Part shown: in pieces, positions 1,018 through 39,087 of the stretch
Layout: each line of letters starts with the position of its first letter
Position numbering within the stretch: the stretch's first letter is position 1
Origin: Eledone cirrhosa
Taxonomy: Eukaryota
Direction: 5' to 3'
DNA length: 64,000 nt
NCBI GenBank assembly: GCA_964016885.1
Contig: OZ024745.1
Location: 111,848,001 to 111,912,000, forward strand
The notes under the pieces: model-generated
The model's input: the letters and a program-made list of their open reading frames with translations, nothing else
Database searches by the model: none
What the model was told of the DNA's origin: nothing
Position numbers and translations under genes: made by a program

Positions 1018-1498
1018 ATTATGCAGACATTCAATATTTCAATGTTATTATCAACTGTCATTTCATCAGAATAATTTTATTGAGAACCTGTTTGGTTTTT
1101 ATAGAGAATATTAAGAGGGAGGGGTGAAGTTGTTAGAAGAATAGTTAAGGGAGTGGATAGAGATTTTTTTGATAGCAGTGAGAATTTTTGGTAGCAGTGA
1201 GTAATTAGATTCCCATCTGTTGTTTTGACATTTTTATAGAATACATTATTTGGCGTTGGTTATTTTTCTAAATCTATAGAAGGATTAGAGATAGTAAAGA
1301 TATGCATGGTTGGTTTTGTGTTTGCACTTAATTAACATACAGACTTAAATTTTTCTTTCAAGTGTACGTATCCGTTCGCCCACACATTCACACACAAACA
1401 TATATGCACACCTCTACAAAATACATACACTCATATATATATATATATATATACAATGATATTAAATAAATGGAAACTATATTTATAAAACCATATTT

Positions 1499-1559
1499 AT
1501 TCTATTATATATATTTCAAGGGTACCAAATATTTTGGTACGTTATCATCAGATAAAATA
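1499..1559 (-). ncRNA. type I hammerhead ribozyme (partly degenerate)
   Basis: Minus strand: tattttat-CTGATGA-taac gtaccaaa ata tttggtac cctt-GAAA-tatata-TA-atagaata; stem I pairs, distal stem II 8 bp, base of stem II mismatched. Confidence 0.65.
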
Positions 1560-1674
1560 CAAAATGTTTTATAAATATTTGACATGACCAAGGATAATAT
1601 ACCTTAACGGTTCAAGTTATCCCTGACTTTCCAGGGATAACTTGAATTGCAAACTTGACTGTCACCACACATTA

Positions 1675-1713
1675 TGAACCTGAAGATTGCGAAAGCATGA
1701 AAGTACTTGTTCA
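1675..1713 (+). ncRNA. minimal type I hammerhead ribozyme
   Basis: tgaac-CTGAAGA-t tgc gaaa gca t-GAAA-gtac-TT-gttca: 5-bp stem I, 3-bp stem II with GAAA loop, palindromic helix III (AGTACT). Confidence 0.8.
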
Positions 1714-3134
1714 ATCAACACTTAACATTTAATATTCTACCATACTATTTCATTCTAATACCATTATAAATTTTAAAGGATTGTAAATAAAATGAGTAAA
1801 TCAGACAAAGTTGGAATTCCTTTTATTAATATATATATATATATATATATATATATATATACACTTGAACACACATGCACTTACCTGTAAACATGTTTAC
1901 ATAAAGATATATACAGACACACAACTCAAAAACATTCACTTCTATATGTATCTTCATGATGATGTGTGCTTCTAATTTAGATGTTCCTCTTTGAGAATAA
2001 TCTTTGAAATTCATTACATTTTTTAATACAGATAAGTATCATTACATATATATTTTTCTATCACACCTTCTCCTCTCACCCAATTCTCTCTCTCTCTCTC
2101 CCTCTCTCTCGTTATTATATACCTCTATCTTTTTTCTTTTCAATAATCCCTCTTATTCCTTCTTTACTCCAACTCTACTTATCTTTGGTTATCTTTTATC
2201 ACCTAAATTTACTTTCTCCACATACTTACATTTTTTCTTTTGTGTTTTCTCTTTTATATATTTTCATTGCATATTCTCACTATGACTAGTTTCAGTCAAT
2301 CTCTCCCCGTTCTCTTTCTCTCCCTCTCTCTCTCGTCTCTTGTCTCTCTCTTCTCTCCCTCTCTCGTCTCCCTCTCTTCTCTTCCTCTCCCCCTCCTCGC
2401 ATATCTCTCTCCCCCTTCTCTCGCCTATCTCCTCTCTCTCCTTTCTTTATTTAGATTTTTATACATCATCATTCATTTTGAGTGTTCTGTAATTTTTTAA
2501 ATTTCACTCTTCTCTCTCTTTTCTTTACCTATTGTCTTTATTTTCATCTATTGATGTGTGTTGAAAGTACATGCAGATGCAAATATATATATGGTGATGA
2601 TGATATGTATATATATATGGTGATGATATATATATATGGTGATGATATATATATATATATATATATATATATATATATATATATATATATATATATACAC
2701 ACACACACACATATATTTATATATATATATATGTACACGTACACATATATATATAGATATACACACATATTTGTGAGAGAGATAATCAGATAAATTGTTG
2801 TGTAGGTATTTTTTCAATAAGCATTAATACACATCTGTTTGTAATAGATTTTATATTTATCCTCTCTAAATGATACAAATTTACCAAAAGTACTAGTAAA
2901 TAAATGAACAAAACAATAGGAAACAAAAAAGACAAACACTTTATAAATAAAACAAATTATCAAAATACTAATATTTTCATAAAAGATAAAACCTTTCAAT
3001 AGTACAACTTATAATTGAATTTCCTTTTAGAGAATAGAACAAGTTATCCAAACATTCTAAGAATAAAGTTTGTTTGGTTTAAAGGTTACAAATCAAACAC
3101 AACTAAGTCAACATCTTGGTATTATGTGTCTGCA

Positions 3135-3410
3135 TGTACATATACACATATATACATATCTATACATATACATGTACATACATATACATGTACACACATA
3201 TACATGTACATACATATACATATCTATACATATACATGTACATACATATACATGTACATACATATACATGTACATACATATACATGTACATACATATACA
3301 TGTACATACATATACATGTACATACATATACATGTACACATATATACATATCTATACATATACATGTACATACATATACATGTACGTACATATACATGTA
3401 CATACACACA
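3135..3410. repeat. 16-bp TA/CA-derived minisatellite (tacatgtacatacata)n
   Basis: Direct periodicity; ORF track shows 16-aa period. Confidence 0.85.
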
Positions 3411-3439
3411 CACACACATAAATGTATATATATTTATAT

Positions 3440-3630
3440 CATCATCATCGATTAACGTCTATCTTCCACGCTAGCAAGGGTTAGATGGGTTTGTACCATT
3501 TAGGGGCAAGTTGGGTTGGGTGACCGTGTCTCGCTCATATAGGAGAGTTTCTGGCTGGTTTTCTATGTCTGGATGCCCTTCCTAGCGCCAACCACATTTA
3601 CAGTGTGTGCTGGGTGCTTTTTGCCGTCTT
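3440..3630 (-). mobile_element. RTE LINE 3' UTR / SINE-B-type tail fragment
   Basis: (atc)n tail plus ctggatgcccttcct...ccaaccacatttacag motif shared with other copies. Confidence 0.7.
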
Positions 3631-3660
3631 TTGCTTTTACACATCATATATATATATATA

Positions 3661-36255: not shown

Positions 36256-36953
36256 CTCTGAATTTTAGTGAAGGTGCTTGGTTTGTAGTGTTGGTTACGA
36301 TCGTAAGGTAATGGGTTTGATTCTTGGATCAGATTGCACATTGTGTTCTGCAGCAAGTTGCTTTATTTTCCATTATTTTTTTATGATAGGTCTGGCGCCC
36401 TTATTATTAAAATACCCAATAAACACCCAATTAATGCAACTGCATAGGAAGCAAGCTAAACCTGTATTGGTGGGAGTTGCAAATTTCATTTTGATTTCAT
36501 TTTATTCATCTCAGAATATTGAGGCATTAAATGATGAAGTGAGGGATCATTGTGTATGGAGAAAGAAGTAATTGTAGAACATCCAATCCATGGTAGCTTG
36601 GAAAAGCAAGTCTTAAGAAAAAATATGATAATAATGGTGATGATGATGATGGTGATGGAAATAATTGTGATGGCAGTGATAGCAATGGTTATGATGAGGA
36701 AGACAGAGATAATTAACCGATACTTAAAATACGAACCAGGTTTTATATTATCACAATCATCAAGAAAGTATCTTTAGATGAAGAAATAGCAATCACATTT
36801 ATGGCTGTCTATGATAAACGATATAGATTATATACAATTTTGGGGTCAACTTAATCAAACAAAATCAATGAACAGAAATGAATATCAATAATGATACAAA
36901 TCATTATTCTTTATTGATATGGTAGATCAGTTATGAGCAAATTTATAGATATA

Positions 36954-37941
36954 CTAGCAGTAAAGCCCGGCGTTGCTCGGGGTCGCTCAGTAGCTGTGTT
37001 AAAGTTACAATGTTAAGTTTCTTTTTTGGCTTAAAAACTGTAGTGTCTACTGTGCAGACTTGCATGTGGTGTTTTTGATTAATATTCCCTCAACCAACAA
37101 TATGCCTTATGAAGTTAAGAAAACATAACGATAACCCGAATAATAATAATAATAATGAAATTATTGTGTACAGTGCTCAGGTGCACTACAACTCGAATGT
37201 TATAACAAAAGAGGATGCTGGGGATAAAAACTGCACTGGTTATTTATTAACAAAGATCGAAAATGTAAACACTGCAACGCAGAGAAAAACATTAGCGTAA
37301 CCAAATTATCAGTTATGTCTGTCTGCACGCCTATATCACCTCTCTGCACGACTGTCTGTCTGCACGCCTATATCACCTCTCTGCACGACTGTCTGTCTGC
37401 ACGCCTATATCACCTCTCTGCACGACTGTCTGTCTGCACGCCTATATCACCTCTCTGCACGACTATCTGTCTGCACGCGTATATCACCTCTCTGCACGAC
37501 TGTCTGTCTGCACGACTGTCTGTCTGCACGCCTAACGACGAAATATTTGCTTGTTTTACGTAGTCTTTAAATAGACTTGTTTTCAAGTAAAAATATTGTT
37601 TTAAAATGCTTTTAAATGGAAATGAAGCAAAACGGAAGCTTAGTGTTCGTGTGTTAATGTCATTTTAAACGCTGAGAAAGCCAGCGTAATTTTTTACGTA
37701 AGGCGCTCAATGTAAACAGAACAAAGGGAAATAACTGATAACTTACGCTCAAAAATCGATACATTATATTCGATTTCGTCACATAGGGTGGGTCAATTTG
37801 AAATTTTTTTTTTCCGATGTCTTCGCTAGGGCTCAATGTACAAGTATAGCAATTTCGGTGCAATTCCGTGAGAGATTCTAAGAGGAGATGTGTGCCAAAA
37901 ATCGATAGACAGACAGACAACCACAGTTTTATATATATAGA
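36954..37941 (-). mobile_element. non-autonomous Helitron
   Basis: 5' A|TCTATATATATAAAA...gtctgtctgtc; 3' hairpin cccgagcaacgccggg then CTAG|T; no TSD. Confidence 0.85.
37316..37533. repeat. 37-bp minisatellite inside the Helitron
   Basis: tgtctgtctgcacgcctatatcacctctctgcacgac, 5 copies plus partial. Confidence 0.95.
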
Positions 37942-38026
37942 TTTAAAAAATCCTTTTACTAGTTTCAGTTATTGAACTTTTGTTATGCTGGGCACCTGTT
38001 TCAAGATTACAATTGCTTGTTTTGTA

Positions 38027-38306
38027 GAGGCACATGGCCTATTGGTAAGGGTGTTGGACTTATGATCTTAATGTTATGGGGTCGATTTCTGGACTGGGTT
38101 GTGTGTTGTGTTCTTGAGCAAAACACTTCATTTCATGTTGCTCCAGTATACTCAGCTGAAAATGAGTGCCAGCAATAGCTGGGGGTTTAACACCCTGAGA
38201 TGGACTGGCGTCCTGTCTAGTGGGGAATCTTGTACTCTTAGTCACTTCACGCCATGAAATCGGGATAAGCACCGGCCTAATAAGCCTTCTGGCTTGAGAC
38301 GTACTT
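38027..38306 (+). mobile_element. tRNA/CORE-like SINE related to family B with a different tail
   Basis: gaggcacatggcc head and ttcttgagcaaaacact centre; 3' gatggactggcgtcctgtc... Confidence 0.7.
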
Positions 38307-38767
38307 TAGACATAGAGACTTAGATATTGACAGGTTTATTTTGTAAAATTCAGAAGGCTGAAATGTGAAGTTGATTGGGAGTGGGGTGGGGGGGATTTGG
38401 GCACAGAATGAAATAATGTGTAACTAAATAGTATCTATTATCAGTAATGTACTGGGTAATTGCTGGCCTTGTGCCAAAAGTAGAAACAATTATTTTGTCA
38501 GATGCTTTACTGATTCTGTCATTCACCACACTTGTGTGTATGTGAGTGTGCATGCATGCCTGCCTGTCTACATATATGTATGTATATATATATATGCCTG
38601 CCTGTCTACATATATGTATGTATATATATATGAAGCCATCAAGCTGAAACTTCAAAGTCACTGCCACTTTTCTACTGAGAAAATAAAATTTATACTCTAC
38701 CCACAAGTAGTGAGTGCTATGGTATTTTAAACACACATTTTGATATATATATATATATATATATATA

Positions 38768-38846
38768 CAGGGTATCCTAAAAATATGTATACACACTTGT
38801 AATAGAATGCTTTTGAAGCATGCATACATTTTTTGGGGACACCCTG
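38768..38846. mobile_element. tiny Tc1/mariner MITE in (TA)n
   Basis: TIRs cagggtatcctaaaaatatgtat / atacattttttggggacaccctg with TA flanks. Confidence 0.75.
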
Positions 38847-38886
38847 TATATATATATATATATGTGTGTGTGTGTGTATATATATA

Positions 38887-39087
38887 TGAAAAAAAGGAAA
38901 AGAATAATTTCACTTGTAGTTCTAAACAATTTGATTTAAAACAATTTGATTTAATTTTATAATATGATTTGGTAGATATACCAAATCATATAAAATTAAA
39001 TCAAATTGTTTAGAACTACATGTGAAGTCATTCTTTTCCTTTTTTCAAATATACCTAACCGTACAAAGGATTTCACATATTTTCCAA
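38887..39087. mobile_element. fold-back island in (TA)n, no ribozyme core retained
   Basis: Inverted arms 38887-39047 centred near 38976; ~40-bp one-sided tail; (TA)n flanks. Confidence 0.65.

Follow-up and report, generated by a model that had tools for sequence, protein, structure and literature searches.

We have studied six short islands of sequence lying between (TA)n tracts in a stretch of 64,000 nucleotides (nt) of contig OZ024745.1 of Eledone cirrhosa (assembly 3.0 Gb). This whole stretch is referred to as the window. The islands are very probably the pseudo-long terminal repeat (pLTR) ends of several families of (TA)n-inserting Penelope-like elements (PLEs), the fold-backs having been formed in single insertions. 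The sequences of islands 3 and 5 and of the right-hand family of island 1 are directly continuous with an open reading frame (ORF) elsewhere in the genome. A preliminary description of the window had proposed a PLE origin, several unrelated families and a single (TA)n-associated fold-back route, all of which are supported by our analysis. It had also regarded the islands as non-coding families. This is not supported: elsewhere in the genome at least three of the families lead directly into PLE ORFs, so that they are the ends of coding elements and not independent.

All six islands are located between tracts of (TA)5 or longer at the positions claimed for them, and every one is multicopy, disposing of the alternative that they are single-copy sequences. 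Four (islands 3, 4, 5 and 6) have inverted arms with a one-sided tail, as had been described, the tails being 80, 42, 91 and 42 nt in length respectively. Island 3 (11291..11455, plus strand) is a fold-back of the end of a Hydra-type PLE, matching locus L308 at 100% over 118 nt; its arms lie at approximately 11291-11375 with the junction at about 11337-11339, and the tail runs to 11455. Island 4 (11480..11776, plus strand) is an older fold-back with arms at approximately 11480-11734 and a tail ending at 11776. It is 88% identical to L235, and the parent is likely to be of Neptune type. Island 5 (20227..20651, plus strand) is assigned as a fold-back of a Hydra-type PLE pLTR from its ORF continuity at L234. 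The arms occupy approximately 20227-20560, the left one extending to the 5′ stop of the family, and the tail runs to 20651. Island 6 (38887..39087, plus strand), with arms at 38890-39045 and a tail to 39087, is a fold-back that lacks a hammerhead and is PLE-like by its layout.

The two remaining islands are not complete fold-backs of one family. Island 2 (9495..9599, plus strand) is a single 5′-truncated arm containing a whole type I hammerhead identified with the motif descriptor. It has neither tail nor inverted arm in the window, and other copies are fold-backs whose tail is about 70 nt long. A larger unit that includes a second, diverged hammerhead copy (L111-L122) surrounds one island 2 insertion, and this unit is present at 11 places with 99-100% identity on contigs C16, C19, C20, C23 and C27. 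In L130 a Neptune-type reverse transcriptase (RT) is found next to island 2; as TA lies between them, we do not count this as a link. Island 1 had been counted as one island; its position stands, but it comprises two joined families. The left family (1454..1646, minus strand), taken as the pLTR end of a Hydra-type PLE, is a multicopy fold-back family in its own right (query 1-192). Its short end is at 1454, the element sense is the minus strand to 1625, and positions 1626-1646 are a plus-strand stub (21 nt) from the same family. The right family (1645..1829, plus strand) is the pLTR end of a PLE that is probably of Neptune type, and is 98% identical to L044 over 184 nt; it has its short end but not the tail of about 35 nt found in its family. 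The two ends belong to unrelated families and are joined via a few common bases with no TA between. Similar two-family joins were observed at L033 and L109. They could result from template switching between different RNA molecules, or from nested insertion with deletion.

A further, older island had been overlooked at 4730..5230 (minus strand), containing a type I hammerhead at 4942-5033. This motif has three good stems meeting in a three-way junction, with a folding energy of −24.4 kcal/mol. The family comprises 187 candidates; it includes inverted copies and has two 3′ ends separated by about 48 nt. No ORF was found in 12 loci.

As stated in the preliminary description, no PLE coding sequence is visible in the window; tblastn found neither a Hydra- nor a Neptune-type ORF. 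Elsewhere, eight loci (L165-168, L174, L176-178) contain a pLTR, an ORF of 737 amino acids, a 3′ untranslated region (UTR) and a second pLTR, lying in TA. Repetition of the pLTR ahead of the ORF is documented for L165, L166, L168, L174 and L176-178. The intact element is approximately 4 kb long, with a 3′ UTR of 1.4 kb and upstream pLTRs of about 170-950 nt, and intact-element loci often carry an inverted truncated copy. The end of this element matches the left family of island 1 at 80-82% over about 120 nt, and island 5 at about 70%. The ORF contains the motifs RWR (residue 37), DKT (118), YRDD (352), CNCRDRSKC (596), IY..YVG (616), CDLC (694) and CKH (721). By these motifs the element appears to fit the Hydra clade, with a one-residue change of RWK to RWR; the assignment was made by comparison of motifs with section 11 of PMC8557442, with published Hydra proteins compared by eye. 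A Pfam search of two PLE ORFs gave no match, and so the assignment to the PLE class rests on these motifs and on homologs, for which there were 185 protein matches, the named ones coming from Argonauta hians.

The links between islands and coding sequence are of several kinds. At L234 the tail of island 5 continues into a 5′ UTR and the start of an ORF that is 48-54% identical to the 737-amino acid protein, and short and ORF-linked ends of this family are 94-98% identical. L308, which contains the island 3 sequence, also includes a C-terminal piece of GIY-YIG endonuclease (EN). In L169 a tail and an inverted UTR are found with a truncated RT/GIY-YIG frame, the end being 85% similar to island 3. 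At L044 an inverted arm that is 98% identical to the right family of island 1 leads into a frame with an RT thumb, a CX4CXXC linker and GIY-YIG. At L235 a Neptune-type EN frame stops about 150 nt upstream of a UTR in common with island 4. The partial frames of L044 and L235 contain the linker and H residues of the CCHH type; the RT core was not recovered, and Nematis is possible. L128 and L131, adjoining a copy of island 2, have an end like island 1 with a truncated RT/GIY-YIG frame, and the end recurs after the 3′ UTR. The order in L131 is TA, tail, a 133-bp inverted end, truncated RT/GIY-YIG, UTR, end and TA. The RT piece from these loci gave 45,026 first-look candidates; 150 were scored, at 83-100%, many of them in open frames of 745 codons.

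The copies of each family have a common architecture. First-look searches gave 2265, 1819, 428, 2363, 1033 and 92 candidates for the six islands, and 40 candidates were scored per island. The left and right families of island 1 each make their own fold-backs. Within a family both outer ends are fixed with TA beyond, and the center and junction differ from copy to copy. There are thus two fixed 3′ ends, and the distance between them is the tail. The tail ends and is followed by TA in 41/51 copies of island 5, 45/47 of island 3 and 13/17 of island 6. The two arms of one copy are closer to each other than to arms of other copies, with within- and between-copy differences of 2.5 and 3.8% for island 5 (25 copies), 2.1 and 5.7% for island 3 (16 copies), 1.9 and 3.3% for the right family of island 1 (8 copies) and 6.5 and 9.2% for island 4 (13 copies). 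This is as expected if both arms were copied from one RNA at insertion. The families are also present in raw reads of other samples, with 1431 and 1184 reads on island 5 and 4418 on islands 3-4, of which 156 cross from the short end into AT repeats. The divergence of the arms and the presence of the tail argue against an assembly artefact.

In three families many of the arms stop sharply at the 5′ side. Among 48 arms of island 5, in copies found by the tail alone, 10 stop at one base, three extend beyond it and 32 are shorter. For the right family of island 1, 14 of 40 arms stop at one base and four go far beyond, and 26 of 44 unselected island 3 arms stop within −4 to +2, with five beyond. 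The contexts of the stops in these families are TC|ACT, TT|ACA and TT|AGT, i.e., YY|A, which we take to resemble the polymerase II initiator consensus. The Penelope promoter is described as lying within the pLTR, with an initiator (PMC2377424). In island 5 the stop motif is preceded by G in 14 of 31 occurrences; long copies lack this G, and in 7 of the 14 cases the sequence does not continue the partner arm exactly. When a cap is reverse-transcribed, an additional G is left as its mark. A search of the literature on cap-derived G found nothing relevant.

These properties suggest a mechanism of insertion. Both DNA strands would be nicked within TA, and at each nick reverse transcription would be primed, beginning at one or other of two internal sites in the element RNA. 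The two short cDNAs would then be joined head to head to generate the fold-back. A PLE protein is reported to nick and extend both strands in AT-rich DNA, to start at two internal RNA sites with a spacing that equals the tail, and to use RNA uncleaved by the hammerhead (PMC11167929). Given two internal start sites and extension of both strands, the two arms should have 3′ ends separated by the length of the tail. Many of the short copies would come from initiation in the 5′ pLTR of the transcript and run-off at the transcription start, explaining the sharp 5′ stop, and the remainder would be ordinary 5′-truncations from the 3′ pLTR. We regard it as somewhat more likely than not that initiation frequently takes place in the first pLTR, with run-off at the 5′ end.

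A number of observations weigh against this picture. No ORF link was found for island 2 in 20 loci; for island 6 there was no ORF by tblastn in 25 loci and no link in 40. The link of island 4 to an ORF comes from one locus, and that of the left family of island 1 is made via an 80% sister family. Mirrored variants in the two arms could have come from later gene conversion between them. The initiator interpretation was chosen after the data were known, and the right family of island 1 has no excess of G before the stop (4/20). Several intact copies have upstream pLTRs that begin far upstream of the proposed start, implying that longer or circular templates exist too. Lastly, islands 4 and 6 give a fuzzy 5′ stop, with no sharp stop in island 6, and the stop of island 3 falls inside loop II of the hammerhead, where the enzyme might stall at RNA structure.

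This last point bears on a different origin for the 5′ pile-up, unrelated to a promoter, in which truncation initiated at the 3′ end is limited by stalling of RT at RNA structure, or by a hot spot of joining at microhomology. Besides the location of the island 3 stop in loop II and the fuzzy stops of islands 4 and 6, the use of short palindromes at recurrent junctions would be consistent with this. However, non-inverted copies of the right family of island 1 stop at the same base beside TA, very few arms pass the stop, and the G that often precedes it in island 5 is absent from the long copies. We consider stalling or microhomology an unlikely source of the stop. There is a somewhat better, though still minor, chance that the short copies are self-propagating non-autonomous solo pLTRs, resembling short interspersed nuclear elements (SINEs), in which the internal promoter is retained, transcription proceeds into the adjacent DNA and PLE protein mobilizes the copy in trans. 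Here the insertion mechanism would be the same and only the source RNA would differ; the same sharp 5′ end is predicted. Short copies greatly outnumber those that are ORF-linked (one of 30 island 5 loci found by the tail alone ran into an ORF), and the recurrence of a single island 2 insertion within its larger unit at 11 places (99-100% identity) also favors such an origin. Set against this, the short ends are nearly identical to the ORF-linked ends (100% for island 3, 94-98% for island 5) with no short-only subfamily shown, and the same ends are found on long copies with UTR and ORF.

The preliminary description had allowed for retrozyme-like RNA, and the islands might accordingly be non-LTR retrozymes that spread via small circular RNA species. 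They do have type I hammerheads in short AT-rich units, and a tandem array of 11 hammerhead units of another family exists elsewhere in the genome (L276; see below). But the six islands are single or head-to-head and not tandem units, no head-to-tail arrays were seen among the loci of the island families, the unit ends do not coincide with the cleavage site, and the ends continue into PLE UTRs and, for at least three families, into PLE ORFs. This origin is very improbable. We give practically no credence to the palindromes being foldback DNA transposons or miniature inverted-repeat transposable elements (MITEs) that target TA, or artefacts of assembly. Tc1/mariner MITEs typically have inverted repeats and insert at TA, and elements resembling MITEs are present in the window. 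Nevertheless, a one-sided tail and a junction and center that vary between copies are not the symmetric terminal inverted repeats with fixed interior of a MITE, the arms have diverged by 2-7%, and raw reads of other samples hold the families with the short end passing into (AT)n. The ORF-linked copies refute a MITE origin. The origin of the islands as ends of PLEs, inserted by priming at two nicks, accounts best for these properties.

We have also examined the hammerhead motifs. Whole or partial type I hammerheads are present in five of the six islands, as had been claimed, with a U3-A8 core in islands 3 and 4, and none in island 6. Our first descriptor, which allowed a C3-G8 core only, detected whole motifs in islands 1, 2 and 5 (two in the last) and another at 4942-5033, and missed islands 3 and 4; the later one allows both C3-G8 and U3-A8. 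Strict matches occur at 1675-1713 (plus), 9509-9568 (plus), 20450-20511 (plus) and 20275-20336 (minus). With both cores there are five strict matches in the window, one of which (at 13729) looks spurious, compared with a mean of 0.07 in 30 shuffles. The motif at 1675-1713 in the right family of island 1 is a minimal hammerhead with a palindromic stem III. The left family has its core at 1500-1557 (minus) with a mismatched base in stem II. Island 3 in the window retains no more than the 3′ half of its U3-A8 hammerhead, which is complete in each arm of L308. At 11644-11685 in island 4 a U3-A8 core is accompanied by a weak stem II; among 64 contexts of this type TTGANAA cores predominate. Island 5 has one whole hammerhead per arm, on opposite strands. 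Longer copies of the island 6 family contain only a core-like remnant upstream. An Rfam scan of the window gave 221 matches; of these 150 were listed, none of them a hammerhead, and they included sub-threshold hairpins resembling microRNA.

Compensatory pairs are found in stems I and II across 132 distinct related motifs. In the superfamily of island 5 and the left family of island 1, the fourth position of stem II is a C-C mismatch in 112 of the 132 motifs, and its neighbors covary. The retained mismatch is possibly a structural or protein-contact feature. On minimum-energy folding of monomers several motifs failed to fold as hammerheads. From sequence, the hammerheads are predicted ribozymes that would be passengers carried within the pLTR.

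How frequent are such motifs in the genome? We sampled 80 evenly spaced stretches of 10 kb (800 kb), 65 of them from the six largest contigs. There were 85 strict matches (71 C3-G8 and 14 U3-A8), compared with 0, 1 and 0 in three shuffles. The predicted enrichment near (TA)n was borne out, 58 of the 85 lying within 200 bp of (TA)5 or longer, the corresponding fraction of non-TA bases being 25%; the matches are clustered, and a nominal p-value would overstate their independence. Seven matches were dropped by eye (one in L245, five in the L277 satellite and one in L319), leaving 78 in 35 of the 80 stretches, including 11 in one tandem array. Extrapolation gives 292,000 motifs genome-wide (bootstrap 183,000-427,000), a count of motifs and not of active ribozymes, obtained with a descriptor written after these families were known. 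By blastn at 80% or more the sample contains 16, 5, 5, 24, 2 and 4 loci like islands 1-left, 1-right, 2, 3, 5 and 6, and at that threshold no locus like island 4 in the 800 kb. The chances are about even that PLEs mass-produce solo hairpin ends by starting in the 5′ pLTR, running off at a capped transcription start on both strands and joining, giving rise to the approximately 300,000 motifs, and that each hairpin contains a back-to-back promoter in a field of (TA)n landing pads where families stack.

Different families are found stacked in the same TA tracts. The TA runs flanking the islands have medians of 12-30 nt, compared with 14 nt for the background, and simple targeting of longer tracts could suffice as the source of this modest difference. 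These lengths do not establish the seeding or extension of TA fields put forward in the preliminary description. Targeting of (TA)n has been described for Hydra and related clades (PMC8557442).

Other repeats are present in the window. Two short TA-flanked repeats lie at 8064-8235, with a CTGATGA core at 8165, and at 8250-8368; they occur in 2 and 13 of the 80 sample stretches respectively. Symmetric inverted-repeat elements, presumably Tc1/mariner MITEs, are located at 3661-4359, 38768-38846, 39134-39707 and 26743-27818, the first three being TA-flanked. A SINE-like repeat, about 190 bp long and abundant, is found at 835-1022, 41557-41752, 43256-43807, 44147-44610, 55740-55929 and 58299-58490, where head-to-head pairs create long inverted repeats at 43300-43722 and 44186-44608. 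Four tRNA-like Rfam matches of 28-33 bits (11939-11996, 17067-17124, 57944-58001 and 60984-61041) are likely to be heads of a tRNA-derived SINE. There are minisatellites of 53 bp (11 copies, 13835-14447) and 59 bp (7 copies, 49213-49650). Elsewhere in the genome, positions 281-3381 of L276 (C3:190000001-190010000) contain a type I hammerhead in every one of 11 tandem units, which are about 310 bp in length; this array is a candidate non-LTR retrozyme. L133 and L177 have a tandem unit of comparable length.

Much of this organization is already in print, including the inverted truncated copy, the tail, the TA bias, pLTR hammerheads, dual motifs on opposite strands and the U3-A8 core. The element class and layout are ordinary, and what is new is the density of the motifs and the 5′ stop. 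Earlier accounts retrieved for cephalopods were limited to Craig 2021 and a repeat annotation of O. vulgaris, although supplements and repeat libraries may hold these families. None of six short island motifs was found in island context in the supplement of Craig 2021, in which line breaks can hide matches, and the main text of the O. vulgaris annotation has no occurrence of the word ribozyme. The closest known system is the Hydra clade of PLEs, with Hydra-1_Obim listed from Octopus bimaculoides as an example (PMC8557442); this clade similarly has a C-terminal GIY-YIG without CCHH, DKT, a CxCX5C linker, a canonical hammerhead and (TA)n insertion. Hydra-1_Obim is listed there with no pLTR and few copies, whereas in Eledone the places bearing RT number tens of thousands and solo ends are numerous. 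The tails given in that account are 30-40 bp and the elements shorter than 3 kb, compared with tails of 35-91 nt and an element of about 4 kb in Eledone.

Published hammerhead counts, in the accounts available, are about 2,000-9,000 per genome in one survey and about 5,000 in another; our estimate of about 290,000 is tens of times higher, with descriptors that differ. A published survey likewise reports dual motifs on opposite strands 100-700 bp apart, the majority of motifs being single and derived from truncated PLEs, together with a palindromic stem III and the U3-A8 core; its available text contains no analysis of a 5′ stop. Non-LTR retrozymes (PMC7229834; bioRxiv 10.64898/2026.07.22.740005) resemble the islands as short non-coding type I units related to PLE pLTRs, but are described as tandem, with a hammerhead per unit and circular RNA, whereas the islands are head-to-head or single. 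In the reaction of Poseidon PAc in vitro (Frangieh et al., 2024; PMC11167929) both strands are likewise nicked and extended, two start sites set the tail, and hammerhead cleavage is dispensable. That protein comes from a different clade, its start sites lie inside the ORF rather than upstream of the ATG as in Eledone, and the available text derives neither solo fold-backs nor a promoter-limited length.

An inverted 5′-truncated copy with a tail is a general feature of PLEs, and PMC8557442 lists the mechanism that generates it among the open questions. The thousands of young, minimal and independently joined fold-backs with a sharp stop in Eledone provide a natural read-out of this inversion reaction, and their density and 5′ stop make its mechanism testable. 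Many of the short repeats classed as unknown or MITE-like in the TA-rich DNA of such genomes are likely to be PLE ends.

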